From Reclinomonas americana ATCC 50394 (taxonomy: Eukaryota), in contig PS015314.1 in NCBI GenBank assembly GCA_048213135.1, forward strand, positions 32,515 to 72,227: a stretch of DNA of 39,713 nucleotides, in the 5' to 3' direction. The position numbers were made by a program, and so were the translations under genes. This document shows, piece after piece, positions 118 to 21,600 of this stretch (positions are counted from its first letter, which is position 1; every line of letters starts with the position of its first letter). The notes under the pieces were generated by a model. That model saw nothing but the letters and a program-made list of their open reading frames with translations, searched no databases and had not been told where the DNA came from.

Positions 118-1839
118 CAATGGCACCGGCAGACACCAACTTGAAGACGCGGACGGCCTTGGTCTGCCCGAGACGATGCGCACGGTCCTACTCGTAGCAA
201 AGTGAGATGCAGCTCAGCAGACACACCGCAACCATCACCACCCACCTGTGCCTGCAAATCGACTTGCGGATTCCAGTCCGTGTCATCTGTGAAGGCAACA
301 GTCAGCACCTGGTATGCTCAATGGCAGCCAGTAAGACGCACAGAACACGACCACATCTGCAACGAGAACAATCAGCAACATGAAGAAACACCACAGCCGT
401 TCCTCCCTCACACGTACCGGCGGCAATCAAGTTCAGACCGACGCCTCCAGCGCGCGTGCTCAACAGAAACACAAATGGCACATCGTCGCCACTGGCATCA
501 GCGGAGGACTTGCCCTTGCCGGCGCCGCCGTCGAGGGTCATTTGCCGCGAACGCTTTGGTGCATCGCTGTCGGCGGCAGGTGAGGCCGGTGAGGCGGCTG
601 CGGTGGTGGTGGTGGCGGCTCTTGGTGTGGAGAAGTGGGAGATGGCGGTGAAGCGCTCTTCGCCGCGGACGGATCCGTCGAGGCGCTCGTATCTGCGAAG
701 GAGGGAAGGGAATAGAGAGGAGATGAGAAGGAGAAGAGGAAGGGGAGATGAGAAGGAGAACAGGAAGGGGAAAAGAAAGGTGCGAGTGGAATGCCTGAGA
801 CATGCAACCACGACAGCAGCAACAAGCGGTGAACACGCAACTTCCACCGACGCAGATGCAAGTAGTCCTGCAAAATGTCGAGCATGGCGGTGAACTGCGA
901 AAACAGCTGCACCGAGATGTTCAGCTTTGTGGCGAACACACATAGCACGAAGAAGGGTGACAGTACACACCAGAACGCGATGGCCGGCGCGCTTCAGTCG
1001 CATGAGGAGCTTGTCGAGGATGATCACTGCAAGCCATCATCGTTAGGAATCGCGTGCACACACACAACGACCATGACATGCACGCAACGCTTGGTGGAGG
1101 CCACAACGAGGTGCTCGCCGAGTCGGAACGGCTCCGGCTCCACGCCCTCGAAGAGGTACGGGTGACCGGCGCACTTGCGCAGTTGCATGACGACTGCGCA
1201 CGGAGAGTGAGTTCAGCACAAGAACACTCATTCACAAATGCAACATCACCGTTCAGCATGTTGGCCTTGCTGGGACCCGTCAGCAGCTCCGGGAGTGTGC
1301 GCTCGAGGATGCTCTTGTAGATCTTGCGTTGTAGCGCGGTGAGGGGGGCGCGGAGGGTGTACTCGGCCTTGGGCGGGAGCGTGAGGTCTTTGCCGACGTC
1401 GATTTTGCGGCGGCGGAGGAGGAAGGGGCGCTGAGCGAGGGAAAGGGTGAGGGGGAGAAGGGGGAAGGGGGAGACAGGGGAAAGAGGGAGGGGTGAAAGG
1501 GGAAGGGGTGACGGGAAAGAGAAGGCAGGGAAAGGGTGATGGGGAGAATGGGGAAAGGGTGAGGGGAGAGGAGGAAAGGGGATGGGAGAAGGGGGAAGAG
1601 AGAAAGGAGAAGTGCGAGGGAAAGCAGGGAATGGATGATGTATACTCTGCGATAAATTAACACAGAAAATAGGGGTAGCCGACAGTATCGTGTATTCAGC
1701 ACGGTGAGAGAGACGGACGGGCCTGGTAAAAGGCTGACAAGGGGAGACTGACAGACAGACAGGCAGACAGGCAGATAAAAAGACAGATAGACAGAGAGAC
1801 AGACAGCCAGACAGAGAGACAGAGAGTTTGAGAGAGAGT

Positions 1840-1877
<38 letters not shown>

Positions 1878-4800
1878 GAGAGAGAGAGAGAGAGACAGAC
1901 AGAGAGTGAGAGACAGACAGACAGAAGACCACAAGACAGACAGACAGACACAGACAGAGAGAGAGATACAGACACAGACAGAACGAGAGAAATGGTAGGG
2001 AGAAAAAGAAGAAAGAAACAGCGAGAAAAACAGTGAAAGACAAGGAGAGTCGCACACACGGACGGAGAGAAGAAGGGCGCGTCAATGATGGACAGATGAC
2101 ACATGAACGAGACAAGGGGCGATAGAGTCAACGAATGCGAGAGTGACTGAGCTACAAAGAGAGAATGGCCATCCACTGTCGACACGTACCAACACTTCAT
2201 GCAGCTCCTGCGCTCCCTCGCCACCGGTGCCCTCGTCGGCTTGCCGATATCTCCGTGAAAAGTCTCGCACATCGTAGAACCTGCACAAAAGGATATGAGA
2301 AACTGGTGTGCCCAGAGGCGACATTGGAGGAGTGCAGCAGCGACACGAGTGGAAGCACATGACAAAAGAAGAAGAATGCACTGACACCACAGGACTACAG
2401 CAACGATAGCAAGACATGAGGAGTGCACAGAAAACTATCACCGACAGAGGAGGAGGAATGCAAGAAAGAATACACCACGGACACAGAGGAAGAAGAGTGT
2501 AATGTCGACAGCGGAGAAGCGCAATACCAACGAGCGAGAAGTAAAGAAAGTAGAGCGAGAATGGAGGAGGGCACATGAGGAATGAAGCAATGGGGAAGTG
2601 TGCAGCGGCAACAAATGAGAGATAACTAAGGAGGAGCGTGCATGAAGGTCACGCAACTTGTTGTGATCCAAGAAATGCAGGATTGACCACAGCTCTGAAA
2701 AGACAAGTCAGGCAGCGCACCAACTAGAAACTGAACAACATGACGCACCGCCAATGTTGTTCTGCAGCGGCGTGCCGGTGAGGAGCACGCGCCGTGGCAT
2801 CTCGTACTCCTCCGTCAGCTTCTTGAAGAGCTGACTCTTGTGGTTTTTCAGTCGATGTGCCTGTCAAAGGTAAAACAGTTGGATCAGCGAAGGGAGACGA
2901 GAGAGAGAAGGAGCGTCACTGCTGGAAGTCGACTGTGTACGTGTGCGAGAAAGCAGGAGAGCAGCGTCAAGGGCAAGAACTGAGGAAGCTCAGGGGGTGT
3001 GCAGAATAGAGAACAGGGCAATTGTGTCTGCAGCGGGCAGCATAGTTGGGAAGGCCAGCACTGGTAGTGACGGGCAAGAACTGATGGTGCGAGTGAGAAA
3101 GAAGGAGTATAGGAGGAGATGAGTGATTGCAACTGCGTCTGCGGTGAGCAGCCTAGTGGTACAGTCAACACGGGCAGTGACGGGTACGAATTGATGGCGT
3201 GTGAGACAGAAGGCGCAACGAGTGTGTGCCCAATGGGGACGAAGAGAGCAGCTATACCGCGAGGATAGAGAAGGAATGAAGACAAGCGAGAGGAACTGCG
3301 ACATAAATCGACAAAGGATGAGAAGGCACATTCGGCAACACGAGAGACAAACAACGAGAGAAAGAATGACGTCTCTCTCTCTCTCCCTCTTTCCCCATTC
3401 CTCCCCCTTCGCCACCCCGCCCACCTCATCCACCACCACCATCCTCCACATAAACCGACTGAGAAAATCGACCTCCAGCAAGCAATAATCGTATGTCGTC
3501 AGCAGCACGTCAAACGGCAGATCCGGATCCCGTCGCTTCTCTTTCGGCTGCTGCAGCACGCACCGCAGCACCTCCTGCTCCACGGCCTCGCGGTCCTTGC
3601 GCTCTCCCGCGTATGTCACCACGCGCAGAATGCCGGGGCTGAGTGTGCGCGAGAATTCGTCGCGCCAGTTGCGCAGCAGGGAGAGCGGCATGATGATGAG
3701 GAAGGGTGGGCGGATGTTGCATTCGCGGTAGAGGGCGGCGAGGAAGGTGATGGTTTGGATGGTTTTTCCGAGGCCCATTTCGTCGCCTGAAAAGGGGGGA
3801 AGGGAGGGGGAGAAAGGAAAGGGAGTGGGAAGGGAGGGAAGGGAGTGGGAGTGGGAGGGAGAACAGTGAGAAGGAGGGAGAGAAGAGCGTGAGACGGAAG
3901 AGAGAGATGGAACGAACAATAGAGGAGAAGAACAAAGAATGGATGAAAGGGAAAGAAAGTGAATTCTTCGTCCATTCTTCTCCTGCCTCTCCTCGTCCTC
4001 CTCGCCCTCTCAAACAGACACAACACACAGGTTGAGTGTCCCGATGTGAAGGAGACGAACGAACAGAAACACTGAGAGAGCGAGAACAAGAGGAGAAAGG
4101 AAGGAAAAGACTTTGCAGGCAGAAGCACACAGACAGGATGAGACGGAGACGAATGAGAAAGTAAGAGAGGCAACAGCGCGACAGAGGCACAGGGTGGCTA
4201 AAGAGACAAGGGAGAAAGAGGCAAGCATCAACCAAGAGAGAGAAAAGGAGGCAACGGGAGCAAAGGAAGAAGAAGAAAAAGAAGAACAAGAGCAATTGAA
4301 GAGGAGTGAGGAGGAGAAGAGTAAGGGCGAGGACGACGAAGAGCAGCGAGGAGGAGGAGGAGGGATGAGACAACAAGAAGAAGATGAAGAAGAGAACCGG
4401 ACCAATGAGGAAGAGGAAGACAAGTTGATGACAATGCAGAAGATGAACAACCCAAGAAGGAGAGGGAGAAGAGCAAGGAGAAGGAGAAGGGGAAGACGGT
4501 GAACAAGAAGAAGATGCAAAGAGAGGGACAAGACAAGAACAAGAACAATAAGGCGAAAGGAGAGCAAGGAGGCGGAAGAGGAAGACAGAGGGGTGGAATA
4601 AGAGGAACTTTAACAAGAAAGACGAACAAGAGGGAGAAGGAGAAGAGGAAGAGGAGAAGAACAAGAAGAAGAGACAGTCAAGAGAGACAACATGTGATGC
4701 TCTCCTTTCTCCGACATCAATGCACGCACACAATGCACACAATGCACAATGCACACTCACCCAACACACAATTGACTCCGCTCTGCACGCGCTCCAGCAA

Positions 4801-7532: not shown

Positions 7533-8103
7533 GAAAAGAATGATGAAAAGGGTGCGACGTCGAGGTCCATCTTTATTTGTCCGACGCGTTTCGTTTTGCA
7601 CTTTGTCGGTGAGCTGCGGATGCACTCAGTGGGTGTGTGTGTGTGTGTGAGTGAGAGAAAGAGAGAGACACAACTGAGTCATATACGCGACTTTGTGAGA
7701 GAAGCGGTGATACGTGATGGAGATGAAAGCGGAAGTGAAATAGATTTCATCGCGCATTGTGTGGACAGAAGAACAGTGAGCGACGGGTTTGAGTTGCACC
7801 GCAACGCGTTGCTTGTTTCTCTGTGAGCGTGCATGTGTGGAGAATGCAAACGGAGTGCGATTACTGAACGGACTCATCATCTCAATCTGCCTTGTGCGTG
7901 TTTTCCCAACTCTCTCTCTCTCTCTCACTCGCTCGCTCGCTCGCTCTCTCAACATGAACGATGAATCTTCTGTGGCATATCAAGACGTCTTCATTTCAGC
8001 GCAGATTCTTTCCGTGCCTGCGTCTTTCTCTTTCCCCCTTTTTCCTTCCTCCCCTTTCCTTCCAGCTCTCTCTCTTTCTTTCTTCTTTCTTTCTTTCTTT
8101 CTT

Positions 8104-8159
<56 letters not shown>

Positions 8160-8276
8160 CTACTACTNNNNNNNNNNNNNNNNNNNNCCGTCGTCGTACG
8201 TACGTACGTACGTACGTACGTACGTACGTACGTACGTACGTACGTACGTACGTACGTACGTACGTACTACGTACTA

Positions 8277-8348
<72 letters not shown>

Positions 8349-8364
8349 TTTTTTTCTTCTTCTT

Positions 8365-8410
<46 letters not shown>

Positions 8411-8465
8411 CGTATGCACAGTCCTTGCTGATAATGATTCTCTCACCCACTCAGCTCCAATATTA

Positions 8466-11400
8466 ATGGCTGCCGCCGCCGATGCTGCATCTCCGTCTGT
8501 CACCGCCAGCTCGGATGGCATTCGCAGGTACTTTGTCATGCAGATCGCTCGCTGTGTCATCATCGCCATTTGCTCACCACCATGTTCTGCAGCGACGGTG
8601 AACTGCAAGCCGCGAGGTAGGTGTTTCTTTACTATCATGTGCGTGTGTCTTTGCTCATCCCTTGCATCACAGTACTGTGAACATGGGACTGGAGGTGACC
8701 GAGGCTGCTCTTCGACTGCGATGTCAACGTGCGCTGGCCGAGTTCAGTCGCACTCACATCGACTTTGATGTGCGCGCCTGGCTACCCAAGTACACACCGT
8801 CGTGCTGGAAGCCGGATGATCCGGCAGTGAAGGACTGGCGTCGACGGCACACACCTCTCCATCCGCAGTTTGTCAAGTTGGACGACAAGAAGCGTGATTG
8901 TGTCATGGAGTGGCGCAGTGCATTCGAGGCAGATCGCGATGCCGACCCGCCATGTCATGGCTTCGATACGACTGCTCTAACCTCCATTCTGCTGTACGGT
9001 GGATGGGTGGACGACAGTGGTCGTGCATTCATGCTGCTTGACGACGACAAGGAGCGCGAGGCCGTGAAGCAGATTCGCGCTTTACGCAACGAGGTGGCGC
9101 ACGAACTGTCGAATCCAAAGACGAGTGTGGAAGCTGCGGTTCTGCGCAATCTCGCCAAGGACGGTGCCTTTCTCCGTGTTCTTTCTGGCCTGTGTCTGGG
9201 CGACGACAGTGAGGCGTTCTGCGGGCGGATTCGCTGGGCACATCAACTGGCGCTGCGCCAGCTTGCCAGCGACACTGTCATTTTCAGAAACGTGAATCAG
9301 CTGGACGGGTTTCCGTTTCCCAGTCGCGTTGTCGAGGCCGAGCGACTTGCGGAGCGACTGCTTCAATGCGAAGTCGGTTTGTGGATGATGCACGTTCCTC
9401 TCTCTCTCTCGATTCGCTTGCTTACATTGTGCTCGTGGTGAGCAGGTGATACTCCCGGAGTGATTGTGCTCTCTGGTGAGGGAGGGAGCGGCAAGACCAC
9501 ACTGGCCGAGTTGATTGTGTCGCAGATGGAGCGGCGCGAGTGGCGTGGCTCAGCGGTCTACTCCGACATGCGCGGTCATACAGGCGATGAAGAGCAGTAC
9601 ACCTCGGTGAGTGCGCTTGTGCTTGTGGATTTGTGTAACGTGAAGCCCGCATTGTTGGTGGTCACGGCATGTGTGTGACACAGGCCATTGACATGCTCGG
9701 GAGTGCATTGCGAGGATTTGCAAGCGTCATGGCATCGGAACGATCAAAGACAGAGTTGCTGGCGCATATCGATCTGTGGGAGAAGGGCGGAGAGGTGGAA
9801 ATGATGCGCAAGCGCCTGGGCGATCTCATGGCGGACACTCGTGGAGTGTTGCTGCTGGATAATGTGGGCAGTGCAAAGCAAGTACTGGATATTATTCGAC
9901 CGTATCACGGTGTGTATGATTGTGCGTGCTCTTGACTTTGAGGTGTCAGTCTCACTCACCATCCACTGTAATGATGATGCAGGGACGCGCCGATTGACGG
10001 CATCGATGATAATTCTGACGACTCGATTCAACCGAGTTGCCGAGCAGCTGCAGCAATCGCCGGTGCTGGGCTCAGCCTCGGTCATGCGTGTGTCGGTGGG
10101 TGACGTGGAAGCCGACGATGTGGCGCAGTATGTGCGCCAGCAGATTGATGCACCGGAGGAGATTTGTCGTGAAGTGGCGGAAGCGGCTGCGGAGCAGCCA
10201 CAGGCTTTTCGCGTTGCTCTCTGCATGAGGTTTGTGTATTGTGTGTTGATCTTCTTGTGCACACATGGTGAGTGACAAGTATACACATGCAGCATGCTGG
10301 AACGAGAGCCTCTGGAGACATTGGCGAGCGATGAGTTGCATGTGCGTCTGGCGGAGACTCGAACACTGGCTCTGGAGGATCTGATGGCCAAGAATCTGTC
10401 CAGCTGCTCGCCGCTGATGCGACAAGTGTTGCTGCTTGTGACGGCACTGCAACAAATGCGGTTGCATAGCACGCGTCGTATGGTGATGCTGCTCGTGCTG
10501 GTGTTCGGGAGTGAGGTTATGTCGGAGTCGGGAGCTTGGGTGCGGCAACTGACGGAACGGTGCGAAAGTGAGATTACTGGTGGCTTAGGTGACGGCGACT
10601 GCAAGGGCGATGTGACACAGGCGCTGGAACTGTTGCGTCGGTCAATGCTGCTGCAGGCCAGGTCAACACTGTCGTGTGATGCAGTGTGTCGGATGGTGAC
10701 TGGTGACGAGTTTTCCATGGAGCAATCGAGATTGGAGTACTACGCGCACGATATCGTGATGGAGTGGCTGGTGTCTGGCGGGCGCGAGCGGGGTGCACTT
10801 GGGTGCTGTGATGCGATTACTGATATTGTTCTCAGTGGCTTGGCCTGTGTAGGCAGTGGTGAGATCGGCAATGTGACCGAGGACATGCTAATTGATGTTC
10901 GCCCGTGTCTGCAAGTTGTATGGAGCCAGTTGCTGTCGACTATGCAGCGTGGGTGGATGCAAGGTGCTTTGCCTGCCGCGATGTCGAAGATGCGATTTGT
11001 CGGTGTGCAGTGCCTGGCATGTTTGGCGGAGACGCGTCTCCCGGTCGGCGATTTTGGTGCAGATGTGGCGATAGCATGTGCTCAATGGCTGAGAGAGCGG
11101 CAACTGGATCAGACGGATCGTGACGTGTTGCACTGGAGAGCAGAATGTGTAGCGGCGCTGCTGACGAGTGCACGTCGTGACGATGAAGCAGCCGAGTATT
11201 TGAAAGAGTACCTTACCACAGTGGAAGTCACTGATGACAGAAAAATGATTGCAATGCTTCTGCATCGGTGCGGATGTTGTCTACAGACTGTAGGCAAACT
11301 TCCCGAGGCTGAGCGACTGTACCGCGAGGTGTTGACGTTTAGACGTGAGGTGCTAGGTGACAGGCATCCAGGTACGCTTGCATCCGTGAGCAATCTTGCT

Positions 11401-14100
11401 GCCTGCGTACAGGATAGCGGCAATGTGGTCGAAGCGGAGCGACTGAATCGGGAGGTGTTGGCGTTGCAGTGCGAGGTGCTTGGTGAAAGGCATGCGCACA
11501 CGCTGGCGTCCATGAGCAATCTCGCAGTCTGCATTCAGGCCCTCGGCAATCTCGCCGAAGCCGAGCGACTGTATCGGGAGGTGTTGACGCGAGAGCAGGA
11601 GGTCCTCGGTGATAGGCATCCGCACACAGTTGGAACCATGATCAATCTCGCCAACTGCATTCACGAGAGCGGCAATCTCGCCGAAGCCGAGCGACTGTAT
11701 CGGGAGATGTTGATGCTGAGACGCGAGGTACTTGGTGACAGGCACCCAGACACGCTTGTATCCATGAACAATCTCGCCATTTGCATCGAGGGAAGTGGAA
11801 ATCTCGCCGAAACCGAGCGACTGCATCGGGAGGTGTTGATGGGCAGACGCGAGGTGCTTGGTGACAGGCATCCAGATACGCTGGCGTCCATGAATAATCT
11901 TGCCAACTGCATTCAGGAGAGCGGCAATCTCGCTGAAGCTGAGCGACTGTATCGAGAGTTGTTGCTGTTGCAGCTTGAGGTGCTTGGTGGCAAGCACCCC
12001 AGCACGCTGGCAAGTATGAACAATCTCGCCAGCTGCGTGAAGGCAAGCGGTAACCTCGTCGAATCCGAGCGACTGCATAGTGAGGTGCTGGTGTTGATGC
12101 GTGAGGTGCTTGGTGACAGGCATCCAGATACACTGGCGTCTCTGGGCAATTTTGCAAACTGCATCCATTCGATTGGAAATGTCGTAGACGCCGAGCGGTT
12201 GTCTCGAGAAGTGTTGCGATTGAGGCGTGAGGTGCTTGGTGACAGACACCCAGACACGCTGGTGTCCATGAACAATCTCGCCAGCCACATCCAGGCTCGT
12301 GGCAATGCTTCCGAAGCTGAGCGACTGTTTCGGGAGGTGTTGGCGTTGAAGCGTGAAGTGCTTGGTCACAAGCATCCAGATACTTTGACGTCCATCAATA
12401 ACCTTGCCGTCTGCATCCAGGAGAGTGGCAATCTCGCCGAAGCCGAGCGACTGTATCGAGAGGTGTTGGCGCTGCGTTGCGAGGTGCTCGGCGGCAGCCA
12501 TCCAGACACGCTGACATCTATGAGCTGTCTCGCCGGCTGTGTCCAGGCCAGTGGCGATCTCGCCGAAGCCGAACGACTGTTCCGAGAGATGTTGGAATTG
12601 CAGCGCGAGGCGCTTGGTGAGAGACATCCAGACACACTGGTGTCCGTGAATAATCTCGCCGGCTGCATCCAGGAGAGAGGCAATCTCTCCGAAGCTGAGC
12701 GACTGTATCGGGAGGTGTTGGCGTTGCAGTGCGACGTGCTCGGTGACAATCATCCTATGCGCGGCAAACTTGCCGAAGCTGAGCGACTATGTCGTGAATC
12801 AATGGGGTTGCATCGTGTGGTGCATGGTGATAGACATCCGCACACGCTGGCATCTGTGAACAATCTCGCCAGTTGCGTGCAAGCGAGTGGCAAACTCGCC
12901 GAAGCGGAGCGACTGCATCGGGACGTGTTGGCGTTGAGGCGTGAGGTTCTTGGTGACAGGCATCCAGACACGTTGAATTCCATGCTCAGTCTCGCCACTT
13001 GCATGCAAGCCAGTGGCAATCTCACCGACGCCGAGCGACTAGTTCGGGAGGTGTTGGGGCTGAGGCGCGAAGTGCTTGGTGATCGACATACCGACACACT
13101 TTCATCCATGAACAGCCTCGCCATCTGCATCCAGGCGAGTGGCAATCTCGCCGAAGCCGAGCTACTGTATCGGGAGGTGTTGGTTTTGACACAAGAGATG
13201 CTCGGTGACAGACATCCACTCACGTTGACGTGTATGAGCAACCTCGCCAGCTGTGTCCGAGCGCGCGGCAATGTCGCCGAGGCCGAGCGTCTGTATCGGG
13301 AGGTGTTGACGTTACAAAATGAGGTGCTTGGTGACAGGCATCCCGACACGCTGGCATGCATGAACAGTCTCGCCGAATGCATCCATAGACGCGGCAATGT
13401 TGGCGAATCCGAGCAATTGTTTCGTGAGGTGTTGACGTTAAGGCGTGAGGTGCTTGGCGGCAGGCATCTGCAGACGCTGATGTCCATGAACAATGTTGCC
13501 TGCTGCGTGCAGGCGAGTGGCAATCTCGCCGAAGCAGAGAAACTGTATCGCGAGGTGTTGGAGTTGAGGTGTGAGGTGCTTGGCGACAGGCATCCGCACA
13601 CGCTTGTGTCCGTGAACAATCTCGCTAGCTGCGTTCGAACGCGCCGCAATCTCTCGCAACTGCATCATCGTGTGGAGGCGTTGGGGTTGCAGCGTGAGGT
13701 ACTTGGTGACAGCGATCTTAGTACGCTCGTGTCAGTTAACAGTGTCGCCATCACCATGAAGGCATGTGGCAATCTCGCTGAAGCCGAGCGACTGTGTCTG
13801 GATATACTGACGTTGAGGCGTGAGGTGCTTGGCGGCAGACATCCAGATACACTAGTGTCCATGAACAATCTCGCCGTTTGCACTCAGGCACGAGGCAATC
13901 TCGCCGATGCGGAACGGCTTTATTGTGAGGCGTTGGTGTTACTGCGTGAGGTGCTTGGTGACTGGCATCCGCATACACTGGCGACGATGTATAATCTCGC
14001 CAACTGCTTGCGCGCAATCGGCAATCTGGCCGAAGCTGAGCGACTGCATCGGGCAGTGTTGGCGTTGATACGTGAGGCGCTTGACAGTGGCGGGCACTAG
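8466..14100 (+). CDS. NLR-like STAND protein: HEPN domain + NB-ARC-like P-loop NTPase + TPR array (~1740 aa)
   Basis: Phase-consistent GT-AG exons 8466-8527, 8593-8616, 8673-9376, 9446-9606, 9684-9909, 9983-10229, 10293-14100. Motifs: FDTTALTSIL...AVKQIRALRNEVAH (Rx4H at 9085-9102), Walker A GEGGSGKT (9475-9498), Walker B VLLLDNV, sensor-1 IILTTR, MHD-like YYAHD (10738-10752), then 42-aa TPRs. Confidence 0.88.
11293..14100 (+). repeat. Coding tandem array of 126-bp (42-aa) TPR units, ~22.5 copies
   Basis: Consensus GNLAEAERLYREVLxLRREVLGDRHPDTLxSMNNLAxCxQxS (kinesin-light-chain/TPR_10-12 type); unit 12 is 14 aa short and unit 20 is divergent. Confidence 0.95.
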
Positions 14101-14531: not shown

Positions 14532-14760
14532 ATGGAGCGAGGAAGCGCAGAGTTCCGCACTCTGCAAGAGTCGCGTCGCAAGCTGCCCATCTATGCAGGC
14601 ATGTGTCACAAAGAGAGGCACACACGCAGAGAGTGAATGCATGCGCTGACTCTCTCTCTCTCTCTGTCTTTGATTGCAGCGCGACAAGCGATTCTGGAGG
14701 AGGTGGCAAGACATCAGTGCATTGTGCTGGTGGGAGAGACGGGAAGTGGAAAGACGACTC
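14532..14760 (+). CDS. DHX33: DEAH-box RNA helicase DHX33/Dhr2-like, N-terminal exons
   Basis: Exons 14532-14598 and 14680-14760: [49 protein letters not shown]. Confidence 0.8.
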
Positions 14761-14806
14761 GTTGAGTGTGAATGAGAGAGAGAGAATGCATGACGGAATG
14801 CATGAC

Positions 14807-14918
<112 letters not shown>

Positions 14919-14948
14919 NNNNNNNNNNNNNNNNNNNNNNNNNNNNNN

Positions 14949-15931
<983 letters not shown>

Positions 15932-17116
15932 CANNNNNNNNNNNNNNNNNNNNNNNNNNNNNNNNNNNNNNNNNNNNNNNNNNNNNNNNNNNNNNNNNNN
16001 NNNNNNNNNNNNNNNNNNNNNNNNNNNNNNNNNNNNNNNNNNNNNNNNNNNNNNNNNNNNNNNNNNNNNNNNNNNNNNNNNNNNNNNNNNNNNNNNNNNN
16101 NNNNNNNNNNNNNNNNNNNNNNNNNNNNNNNNNNNNNNNNNNNNNNNNNNNNNNNNNNNNNNNNNNNNNNNNNNNNNNNNNNNNNNNNNNNNNNNNNNNN
16201 NNNNNNNNNNNNNNNNNNNNNNNNNNNNNNNNNNNNNNNNNNNNNNNNNNNNNNNNNNNNNNNNNNNNNNNNNNNNNNNNNNNNNNNNNNNNNNNNNNNN
16301 NNNNNNNNNNNNNNNNNNNNNNNNNNNNNNNNNNNNNNNNNNNNNNNNNNNNNNNNNNNNNNNNNNNNNNNNNNNNNNNNNNNNNNNNNNNNNNNNNNNN
16401 NNNNNNNNNNNNNNNNNNNNNNNNNNNNNNNNNNNNNNAGGAGAGGAGGGAAGGGTGAAGGGGGAGAAAGGAAATGGGAGGGAGGGGGGACAGGGGGGGA
16501 AGGGAGGGAGGAGAGGGAAAGGGAGGAGGCATAGCTTGCGAACAGTGTTCGTTATAGTCTGCATTCTGCGCTTGAATTCTCTTTCTGCTGTCTCTCATGT
16601 TCATGTGAGTATTCTTAGTTGACTGCCTTTGCATTAGAGGAGGCGAGATTGGAGAAGAAGACAGAAGGGAAGAGAGAATGCGTTTGCATCCTGCTGTTGA
16701 ATGTTAAGTAGCGTACACGCACTCTCTCTTTCCTCTGCAGCCTCTTTTTACGTCTGCTTTGTGTACGCTTGCATTCAAACCTTCAACTTTGTCTGTATGG
16801 GTCTTTAAGTGTTTCGTGTTGAAGTAACATTGTGAGCCGCAGTCTGTTGATATTCGGGTAGCATTTGCGCACTCTGTTCGTACAACTGCAGTCTCCTTTT
16901 TCTTCTATTTTGTCTTCCTCTTCGCTCTCGCTCTCTGATTTCTTCGCGCGCTCATATTTGATTGCTCTAGATGTCGATGTGCATTTTGTCTCCCTTGTTC
17001 CTCCGATTCATCACTGTTTCTCGCGCTCTCGTTTCCCATGTCTGCGCTGCATGCTCTCTTTCTCTCTATCTCTCTGGCACCTGGCCCGAATTGATGTTTG
17101 TTTGCAGAAGCCTGCT

Positions 17117-18677: not shown

Positions 18678-21600
18678 TCAGTAGGTCTGCAGAAGAGTGA
18701 CACTATTGAGTGTCGAGAGAGTCGACACTCACGAGACACGCATGACGCAACGGCTTTCTCGGCGTCGGACATTTCCTTCCAGGCCTGACCCAGGAGTTTC
18801 ACAATCACCGAGGCCGGGCGATCCGGATGCTGCACAACAACAATCAGTTGACAAGGAACACCACAGCACCACAAACGCCCCACAAAACCTTCGCTTTGAA
18901 CTCCTCCTGCTTCGCACGCGCGAATCGCAGGAACGGGTTGAGGGGGCGGTCGATTGCATCGTCGCTGACTTTGCCTTTTGGAGGGACAGGAGCAGCAGCG
19001 GCAGCAACGGCGGCGACGGCAGCCGGAACAGCAGCACCACCACCGAATCCAACGGCGTCTGGGCGTGAGGGCGGAGCGAATCCGGCGATCAATTGACCAG
19101 CACGCGGATCGTCGAAACCTGCGGCTGGATTCGCAAACCCACGGGCAGCAGGGTATTCCCACTTCGGCATTGCCGGTACCTTCTTGGGCGCATTTCCGTT
19201 CCCCGCAGCATCCGACTTATTCTTGACGGGGGCAAGCTTCGCAGCCGCCGCCGCCGGTGGAGCATCGGGAGAGCCGAACAGACCGGCAAGTTTCGCCGGC
19301 ACTTGTGAAAAAGCGTCGGCGGGACCAAATGCAAACGGACGTGGCGGTTCCGCAGGCGGAGGCGCACTGAACTTGAATCCACCGCCGGCGGCCGGGGCAG
19401 GGGCGGCAGCAGCAGCGGCAGCGGCACCAAATCCAAAGCCGCCGCCGGCGGGCGGGTTTGCCAGTTTGAAACCAGGTTGTGCAGGTTGTGCAGCCTGCGC
19501 AGCACCACCACCAAATCCAACAGCAGGTTGGACCTGTGCGCCACCAAATCCGAAACCAGGTTGCGCAGGTCGTGCAGCCTGCGCAGCCGCAGGGGCGCCA
19601 CCAAAGCCGAAAGCAGGCTGCGCAGGTTGTGCAGCAGCAGCCGACTCACCAAAGCCAAAACCAGGTTGCGCAGGTTGTGCAGCAGCAGCAGCAGCGGCCC
19701 CAAACCCAAATGCGGGCTGTGCAGCCTGCGCAGCAGCAGCCGACCCACCAAAGCCAAAACCAAGTTGCGCTGGTTGCGCAGCAGCAGCGGCGCCACCAAA
19801 TCCAACAGCAGGTTGGGCCTGTGCGCCACCAAATACGAAAGCGGGTTGTGCAGGTTGTGCGGCCTGCGCAGCAGCAGGGGCGCCACCAAAACCAAAACCA
19901 AGTTGCGCAGGTTGCGCAGCAGCAGCGGCACCACCAAGGCCAAAACCAGGTTGCGCAGGTTGCGCAGCAGCGGCGGCGCCACCAAAGCCAAAAGCGGGTT
20001 GTGCAGCCTGCGCAGCACCAACGCCACCAAATCCAACAGCGGGCTGGGCCTGTGCGCCACCAAATCCGAAAGCCGGTTGCCCAGGTTGTGCAGCAGCAGC
20101 AGCGGCCCCACCAAAGCCACATGCGGGCTGTGCAGCCTGCGCAGCCGCGGCGCCACCAATGCCAAAACCAGGCGGTGCAGGTTTCAGATGCGGGTACGCT
20201 CTGGCAGCTGCCGCGGCCGCTTCAATTGCTGCAACCATCGGACTTGGCGCAGGTGCTGCAGCACCGAATCCGAAACCAGCCGCTGCTGGCGGAGGAGCAC
20301 GCTGCGGAGACACAGCTCGTTGTCCGAACCTAACCGCACGCGCTTCCGCCTTGAATCCGAAACCACCCTCCGCTGGCGGCGGAGACGGAGCAGGCGACAC
20401 AAATTTGGCCGCAGCTGGTTGTGCAGGTACACCTAATCTGAACGCGGCTCGTTGTGAGAGCGAAGCCGCACGCGCCTCCGCGGGCACTGCAGCAGCAGCA
20501 CCGAATGCGAAGCCACCCGCTGCAGGCTGCGGCGACGCCCTGATTCGAACACCATCTGCAGGCGGAAGCGGAGAGGCCGAGCCATCTCCAACTTGGGCAG
20601 AAACCACAGGCTGCTCTGCTGGCTGCCGATGCAAGGGCACGCCGAACACGGTGACGCCAGAGTAGGCGAGAGGGGGAGGACGAGCAGCGGCAGCTCGCGC
20701 ATCGGGAGACTCGACTAGCGATTTGAGACGCTTCTCACTGATGCCGGCCAAGGCACCTGCGCGGCACGGAGGGTGTCAGTGGCAGTTTCGCACAACCCTT
20801 TTTTTATAGCAACTCACCTGCCAGCATGTCCGCGGCCGACGTCTGCGCCACGGGCGAGGCTGATACGCGCACGAAGCGATTGATAGAGTCGCCGTCGGCG
20901 GTCACAGAGTGGGCGACACGAACGGCGGAGCGCACACGCTCGAAATTCTCCTGCAAGTCCTGTGTGCGTGGTGCGGCAGAAAATGATGAGCAACACACGA
21001 AGTCTGTCGGTGACGTGAGAAAGGCAGCACGAACCACCAGAGTCTTGTCCAGCGACTCCCAGCGCGCAATGTCAAGTCTCTGCAAGTACTCGCTGGTGGG
21101 ATTGAGCTCCGCCAGTTGTCGGTTGGCGCGCAACAAGAATTCTGTGAGGCCAATCAATGAAAAACAACAAGAAATAACAAGAAAAGGAGGAGACCACGTG
21201 CGCACCCTGTTCACGCTGAATGGCGAGCTGGCGAGCTCGCACCTCCTGTGCCACGAAGTCTTGCAGCTGGTGCCGGAAGAGGTCCACCAGGCGATCAATC
21301 TCCGCCTGCAAGGGGTGAGTGGTGCGCGAAGCGGACAACGGGGAGAGGTAGGCGGGGGCGCACGCAACAGGATCCTCGGCGGCCGCGAGCGCCGTCTTCA
21401 TCGCCTCCACGTTGCGTGAGCGCTCGGCCACCGCCACTCGGAGTTTGCTGGTGGCCACTTGCACGTAGTCTCGCTACACACGCAGGGAATATATTAGGAG
21501 AAGGGCGATAAGGGGGAAAGCGAAGGGGAGGAGAAAGAAAGGGGGAAGGGAAAGGGGAAAAGGAAAGGGAGAGAGAGAGAGAGAGAGAAGCAGGTGACCA

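Follow-up and report, generated by a model that had tools for sequence, protein, structure and literature searches.

A predicted seven-exon gene of Reclinomonas americana combines a candidate HEPN-like head with a STAND-like P-loop NTPase and a TPR array

We analysed a stretch of 39,713 nucleotides (nt) from Reclinomonas americana ATCC 50394 (contig PS015314.1, positions 32,515 to 72,227 of the forward strand), hereafter called the window, with a focus on a candidate gene that spans 8466-14100 on its plus strand. A first-pass annotation had described this locus as a candidate NLR-like immune receptor with a HEPN ribonuclease (RNase) head, an NB-ARC nucleoside triphosphatase (NTPase) and a series of tetratricopeptide repeats (TPRs). 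In our model, the gene comprises seven exons separated by six GT..AG introns of 56-77 nt, and the joined coding sequence of 5232 nt runs through 1743 uninterrupted codons to a closing TAG (Table 1). Stop-to-stop open reading frames (ORFs) on this strand occupy 8602-9441, 9442-9678, 9639-9935, 9805-10275 and 10276-14100; short GT..AG introns at 9377-9445, 9607-9683, 9910-9982 and 10230-10292 connect these five, and each of the four restores the frame. If read through, every intron from 8617 on would bring in a stop codon or a frameshift. Exons 3-7 share a common GC pattern over the first, second and third codon positions (GC1, 0.62-0.71; GC2, 0.39-0.52; GC3, 0.59-0.69), and the introns are poorer in GC than the exons, at 0.41-0.53. 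The stop-free model of 1743 codons bears out the earlier observation that the domains are split in the ORF track and become fused only upon splicing. The three modules of an NLR-like layout lie on one polypeptide in the predicted frame, across the four frame-restoring introns, and at the level of sequence this one frame does hold a helical head, a P-loop NTPase with a STAND-like order of motifs, and TPRs, as had been claimed.

The stop codon of the head ORF lies 4 nt upstream of the Walker A exon, in which no in-frame ATG precedes the P-loop; this exon therefore cannot begin a separate protein that keeps the P-loop whole. On sequence grounds, the missing ATG is the strongest argument that head and NTPase are truly fused, and we regard it as highly probable that head, NTPase and TPRs are parts of a single spliced gene, as the model predicts. 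An alternative is that the fusion is artefactual, with head and NTPase-TPR portion belonging to separate transcripts, or that the gene is a pseudogene or a product of mis-assembly. The gene model was indeed built from sequence logic only, exons 1 and 2 are guesses, the assembly is gapped (9 runs of N), a small neighbouring contig appears to be mis-oriented (see below), and one TPR unit is shortened and another degenerate. However, the entire gene lies inside one gap-free stretch, between the N runs at 8168-8187 and 14919-14948; four consecutive short GT..AG introns restore the frame while the NTPase motifs stay in order; the Walker A exon follows the head ORF within 4 nt without its own start before the P-loop; and all 1743 codons are free of internal stops. 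Set against these features, an artefact appears very improbable.

Translation could alternatively start at the ATG at 8683 instead of that at 8466, and the gap at 8168-8187 may conceal a further 5' exon. The gene is flanked, at 7980-8440 and 14800-14920, by long (TC)n/(GA)n and short-period tracts that adjoin the N runs, and these tracts probably account for the assembly gaps.

Table 1. Predicted features of the candidate gene (positions in the window) and the basis for each
Feature	Position	Strand	Basis
Exon 1, tentative	8466-8527	+	ATG at 8466-8468; 20 codons plus 2 nt; frame-consistent GT donor at 8528; a guess
Exon 2, tentative	8593-8616 (24 nt)	+	AG acceptor at 8591-8592, GTAGGT donor at 8617; speculative
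Exon 3, orphan helical head, 231 residues from ATG 8683	8673-9376	+	279-codon open frame; all-helical prediction
RNEVAH, candidate HEPN catalytic motif (Rx4H with Asn after Arg)	9085-9102	+	Sequence reading, regular expression
Intron 3, head/NTPase join	9377-9445 (69 nt)	+	GTTTGT..GAGCAG; in frame but holds TGA at 9439-9441
Exon 4, Walker A GEGGSGKT at 9475-9498	9446-9606	+	Generic P-loop Pfam matches, below cut-off
Exon 5, Walker B VLLLDN at 9846-9863	9684-9909	+	Motif; MAFFT column with LL[VI]FDN of six NB-ARC-TPR proteins
Exon 6, sensor-1-like IILTTR (10009-10026) and degenerate GxP-like QPQA	9983-10229	+	Motifs, MAFFT alignment
Exon 7, first part, helical linker or winged-helix-like region, AHD at 10744-10752	10293-11301	+	Motif, alignment
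Exon 7, second part, ~22 TPR_10/TPR_12 repeats of 42 residues	11302-14100	+	Pfam, TRF; TAG stop at 14098-14100

The C-terminal ~930 residues are, beyond doubt, TPRs of the kinesin-light-chain type. Pfam TPR_10 matched with E 5.6e-192 (617.6 bits), in 21 stretches within 11401-14097 and one more in 10276-11400, and TPR_12 matched with E 4.2e-186. Tandem Repeats Finder (TRF) reported a tandem period of 126 nt in 11.5 and 10.1 copies, the units being 70-74% identical in DNA; at the protein level the units have 42 residues, apart from one that is cut short at 28 and another that is degenerate. The first-pass count of ~22 TPRs was right, judging from the TPR_10 stretches, the 126-nt period and the list of units. 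A search with ORF residues 1-510 was dominated by TPR proteins, and a TPR query against genomes returned no matches. Opposite the array, at 11353-13664 on the minus strand, are antisense ORFs of 477, 304 and 250 residues. In a Pfam scan of the 304- and 250-residue ORFs, all rows were weak and unrelated, and the three look like a by-product of the codon pattern of the repeats rather than genes.

Between head and repeats, the spliced model carries GEGGSGKT (residues 274-281; Walker A), VLLLDN (372-377; Walker B), IILTTR (402-407), QPQA (464-467) and AHD (626-628), in the order found in STAND NTPases. At the motif level, Walker A, Walker B and an hhhTTR sensor-1 succeed one another as in the NB-ARC/AP-ATPase group. 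When the model was aligned by MAFFT with six Pfam-positive NB-ARC-TPR proteins, the NTPase motifs shared columns, including the unusual Asp-Asn Walker B, an agreement judged by eye. Also by eye, QPQA (464) and AHD (626) appear to be degenerate look-alikes of the GLPL and MHD motifs of the ARC subdomains.

We also compared the module with families and profiles. The best Pfam match of the Walker A exon was nSTAND3 (E 2.8e-5), with NB-ARC (E 2.3e-4) and NPHP3_N (E 2.8e-4) among the others, all below cut-off; exons 5 and 6 matched no Pfam family, and the linker in the first part of exon 7 matched no Pfam or PADLOC family. Used as a query, the linker retrieved only TPR-like helical clusters from the ESM Atlas and nothing from metagenomes. 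Several comparisons gave no significant NB-ARC similarity beyond the P-loop. The Pfam NB-ARC match covers residues 3-30 of the Walker A exon at 20.9 bits, against a cut-off of 23.5; hhalign with the six NB-ARC regions aligned the P-loop only (40 columns, 51% probability); and a hidden Markov model (HMM) of the six NB-ARC sequences, with the P-loop removed, scored -0.4 bits, which was equalled by 85 of 1000 shuffles. With the P-loop kept, the real score was reached by 1 of 1000 shuffles. IILTTR was the best local match to this HMM, at a score that was not significant.

The P-loop exon of a neighbouring helicase, called DEAH-type by eye, served as a control and gave nSTAND3 (E 0.0011), AAA_16 and AAA_22. 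Because a helicase P-loop exon receives the same kind of matches, the nSTAND3, NB-ARC and NACHT matches are uninformative on STAND membership, and we rejected the idea that those of the Walker A exon prove it. The 'NB-ARC' label of the first-pass annotation is therefore not supported beyond the P-loop, given the Pfam scores, hhalign, the HMM shuffles and the helicase control. Based on its predicted motifs, we describe the middle module as a STAND-like P-loop NTPase and assign it to no particular family. That this NTPase is a STAND-type switch with the TPRs as its sensor nonetheless seems likely to us.

The head contains RNEVAH at model residues 167-172 (head residues 135-140), an Rx4-6H sequence with a polar residue after the arginine, as is usual in HEPN domains, where that residue is often Asn; the bare motif, as discussed below, is uninformative. 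Oyster DZIP3-HEPN domains most often show this form, Rx4H with Asn following Arg (PMC9646362). Pfam was run on the whole head and on four sub-ranges at E up to 10, with HMMER filters that drop most weak matches. Over all families, it returned DUF4145 (E 0.0012-0.0052; 17.3-19.3 bits against a cut-off of 23.1), HEPN_Swt1 (E 0.054-0.14; 12.9-14.2 bits against 27.5), HEPN_RiboL-PSP (E 0.24; 11.7 bits against 28.4) and the unrelated DUF1847. The first three are families of the HEPN clan, a membership that PMC3710099 supports for DUF4145. All three HEPN-clan matches are confined to head residues 121-146 and to the late, motif-bearing part of the profiles.

A protein-language-model search of the ESM Atlas with the head pointed in the same direction. 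The top cluster (0.92, 172 shared features) has HEPN_Swt1 in 20% of its members, and 17 of 30 matches fell in the HEPN_Swt1 top-cluster set; a HEPN_DZIP3 cluster at 0.88, with PF18738 in 11% of members, is a lead only. In low-pLDDT (predicted local distance difference test) models, the head is predicted to form helices at 68-85 and 96-104, an insert, a helix at 121-142 with the motif at its end, a loop, and a helix at 149-165. According to PMC3710099, HEPN domains have a four-helix core of two alpha-hairpins, in which an insert separates helix 2 from helix 3 and the motif ends helix-3; the location of RNEVAH in our low-pLDDT models agrees with the helix-3 end given there. The pattern RN..[AG]H, which was picked after the fact, occurred in 0.19% of head shuffles.

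A number of results weigh against a HEPN head. Every HEPN family match was below cut-off, and HEPN_DZIP3 (PF18738) was absent from the Pfam matches of the head at E up to 10. Among 10 control ORFs (antisense or non-coding, from the same window), 3 gave unrelated families at E 0.0003-0.0034. Bare Rx4-6H motifs occurred in 86% of 20,000 shuffles of the head, which has 24 Arg and 6 His, and there are four matches in the head itself; we rejected the bare motif as HEPN evidence, since it is no more frequent than chance in the shuffles. The recognition value of the head in the Atlas was 2124, under the 2300 reached by 91 of 100 known-family proteins. Single-sequence AlphaFold2 models had pLDDT values of 42.6 and 51.5, too low to judge the fold, and fold searches on the second model yielded noise (Foldseek best E 1.5, VIA best Z 5.5); the weak helical VIA and Foldseek rows include the ITS2 pre-rRNA processing complex 7y17 (Z 4.7), which does not stand out. 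Moreover, the Pfam and language-model signals may share one source, the same ~10-residue motif.

Searches for homologues of the head were likewise unproductive. With phmmer, there were 0 matches at E up to 0.001 among 1.84 billion representatives, a result that also weighs against the HEPN assignment, and a word-indexed search of longer proteins gave 0 homologues. PDB sequences gave chance rows only (E above 1); NCBIfam, PADLOC and PHROGs gave 0 families; metagenome, genome and viral contig scans gave nothing; and plasmid tblastn gave two chance-level rows. Head and NTPase are both orphans, which is a distinctive trait of this gene.

These results leave room for a real STAND-TPR protein whose head is not a HEPN domain but some other lineage-specific helical effector or adaptor, with RNEVAH arising by chance in an arginine-rich helix. 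Such a head would be in keeping with HEPN matches that are all sub-cut-off and limited to 20-30 residues, with control ORFs that draw unrelated families at similar E-values, with four Rx4-6H matches among 24 Arg and 6 His in the head alone, with an Atlas recognition value under the usual mark, and with the lack of both a homologue and a confident fold. On the other hand, two different methods point to HEPN_Swt1, whereas 0 of the 10 control ORFs gave any HEPN family; the extended motif is scarce in shuffles and sits at the position expected for helix-3; and HEPN is already documented as a head of STAND proteins. We consider a non-HEPN head possible though unlikely, and lean, with some reserve, towards a very divergent domain of the HEPN superfamily with a putatively intact RNxxxH site. 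Of the HEPN head put forward in the first-pass annotation, what stands is a suggestion from sub-cut-off Pfam matches, Swt1/DZIP3 Atlas clusters and the location of the motif; the Foldseek check for a HEPN fold that it had proposed returned only noise (best E 1.5, on the pLDDT 51.5 model).

The surroundings of the gene contain further coding sequence. Downstream, pieces that we take, by eye and from helicase motifs, to be a DEAH-type helicase lie in opposite orientations at 14637-14765 (plus strand) and 14950-15931 (minus strand). The first is a motif-I-like exon (GETGSGKTT) on the same gap-free contig as the candidate gene; the minus-strand pieces, which include SAT, are in a 985-bp contig between the N runs at 14919-14948 and 15934-16438, and Pfam at E up to 0.01 found no family on the two of them. 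This small contig was probably scaffolded the wrong way round. If it is inverted, the helicase gene would begin ~0.5 kb downstream of the candidate gene on the same strand. Upstream, at ~400-4000 on the minus strand, is a multi-exon gene for a chromatin-remodelling helicase of the SNF2/CHD type (SNF2-rel_dom, E 1.3e-24). The best relatives of its SNF2 exon are two EukProt entries, 47-48% identical, and intron calibration by mapping these two did not come out clean. At 19000-21000, a block with 64% GC has long ORFs on both strands (643 residues on minus, 522 on plus), for which Pfam at E up to 0.001 found no family. We found no paralogue or cluster of similar genes within the 39.7-kb window.

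This setting bears on a different explanation, in which the protein is a housekeeping or regulatory P-loop-TPR scaffold, acting in the manner of nephrocystin-3 or of MalT/AfsR-type STAND proteins, without an immune role and with a head that binds RNA or protein without cutting. The neighbours are ordinary (the SNF2-type helicase and, without Pfam support, the DEAH-type pieces called by eye), no paralogue or cluster accompanies the gene in the window, NPHP3_N is among the P-loop matches (E 2.8e-4), and Pfam TPR_NPHP3 matched the protein at 164 bits, over its cut-off of 100. In addition, certain HEPN domains of eukaryotes are inactive binders, Swt1 being an example (PMC3710099). However, TPR_NPHP3 is also among the families of the TPR proteins that we retrieved, so it probably reflects the type of repeat, and NPHP3_N is sub-cut-off (21.5 against 24.8 bits) and limited to the P-loop exon. 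The motif keeps all three of R, N and H, and orphan, fast-evolving sequence together with long, recently homogenised repeats (70-74% DNA identity) is, we infer, usual for conflict genes. A scaffold of this kind accordingly strikes us as improbable.

We regard an NLR-like protein as the best explanation. STAND and NLR switches are known from Apaf-1, plant and animal NLRs, and Avs proteins; HEPN RNase activity is metal-independent, and RNase L, Ire1, Cas13 and Csm6 require two HEPN domains side by side. From these known switches and paired-HEPN RNases, we infer a mechanism in which the TPR array would keep the protein closed until a ligand is bound. Ligand binding on the TPRs would then lead to nucleotide exchange in the NTPase and to oligomerisation. 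Oligomerisation might pair the heads, such that a composite HEPN site with R, N and H could cut RNA, and RNA cleavage could in turn set off a cell-autonomous defence or death response. Nothing that we found contradicts the sequence of ligand binding, oligomerisation and cleavage that the first-pass annotation had also proposed, which by analogy would apply here.

Taking the parts together, we see even chances that the 1743-residue product is an NLR-like protein of the STAND type with a HEPN-like RNase head, a P-loop NTPase switch and an array of ~22 TPRs. An immune or conflict role we would place midway between likely and unlikely. The source DNA has 56% GC, introns of 56-77 nt and (TC)n tracts, traits that appear unlike those of the animals in which HEPN-headed NLRs have been reported. 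A more speculative and rather doubtful extension is that a non-animal, probably unicellular eukaryote made its own HEPN-STAND-TPR receptor, either by independent assembly or as an ancient remnant of the design of RNase-armed NLRs in bacteria and invertebrates, with a head and an NTPase that have no detectable relative among ~15 billion predicted proteins. If this were true, RNA-cleaving NLR immunity would extend to a new branch of eukaryotes. Were the head a working HEPN RNase, a non-animal eukaryote would join the lineages with RNase-armed NLR-like switches, which would bear on the question of inheritance, transfer or reinvention of the design, and the gene would offer a compact test case for oligomerisation-gated HEPN activation, being a single gene with the head on a single exon.

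The novelty that the first-pass annotation saw in this architecture was overstated, as HEPN-STAND and HEPN-NLR fusions have been published for bacteria and animals. Table 1 of PMC3710099 gives bacterial Swt1-clade HEPN domains fused to 'STAND-ATPase, TPR, S1' and animal DZIP3-type HEPN domains fused to 'TPR ... NACHT ATPase ... LRR' (LRR, leucine-rich repeat), and the same source describes lineage-specific expansions of DZIP3-type HEPN domains in Nematostella, oyster and the unicellular Capsaspora. HEPN-headed NLRs occur in nine invertebrate taxa (PMC8662601). In oyster, >50 NACHT proteins have DZIP3-HEPN heads, and NACHT proteins there can carry C-terminal TPRs (PMC9646362). Coral NACHT and NB-ARC proteins include many with N-terminal DZIP3-like HEPN domains, the NB-ARC ones mostly with TPRs (PMC10236652), and HEPN is among the effector domains of bacterial NACHT proteins (bioRxiv 10.1101/2022.07.19.500537). 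In the papers found on HEPN, NB-ARC and TPR combinations and on protist NB-ARC-TPR NLRs, the titles and abstract openings mention no HEPN-STAND protein outside animals and bacteria; supplements may hold some. The HEPN-STAND-TPR layout is, then, already in print for bacteria and animals, and our gene is probably one more candidate receptor of immune type.

Compared with the animal HEPN-NLRs (a PF18738 head, NACHT or NB-ARC, and LRR, TPR or WD40 repeats), the candidate has the same order of head, NTPase and repeats and the same Rx4H with Asn after Arg, and TPRs are one of their repeat types. An RNA-directed immune role is a proposal in both. It differs from them in that PF18738 gave no match at E up to 10 and appeared only through the Atlas cluster at 0.88, and in that its NTPase is not recognisably NACHT or NB-ARC past the P-loop and no sequence relative was found. 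With bacterial Avs/AVAST proteins (Avs7 and relatives; PMC13581612), the candidate would share the principle of sensing by repeats, switching by a STAND module and acting through an enzymatic effector at the N-terminus that oligomerisation turns on. PADLOC models, however, matched neither the head nor exons 5-6 nor the linker, and the Walker A exon gave generic P-loop matches only; the gene is not a member of the Avs/AVAST group.

Fungal NB-ARC-TPR proteins, which have HET or patatin heads, resemble the candidate in the repeats: their TPR_10/TPR_12 arrays are alike, with 42-50% identity over about one third of the query (best BLASTP alignment, six proteins). In the six fungal proteins, the columns for Walker A, the hhhFDN Walker B, hhhTTR, the PLA-type motif and H-x-hV also agree by eye, whereas the heads differ and the similarity of the NTPases is insignificant without the P-loop. 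The bacterial HEPN-STAND-TPR proteins of the Swt1/Abi2 clade (Npun_F6454, MED222_16016 and Desac_1927; Table 1 of PMC3710099) sometimes carry an additional S1 or cold-shock domain that the candidate lacks, and our gene is eukaryotic, with spliceosomal introns, and no prokaryotic protein was detectably related to it in sequence in our searches. Even so, they have the same three-part layout, and HEPN_Swt1 is the family named for the head both by the Atlas and by the sub-cut-off Pfam matches.

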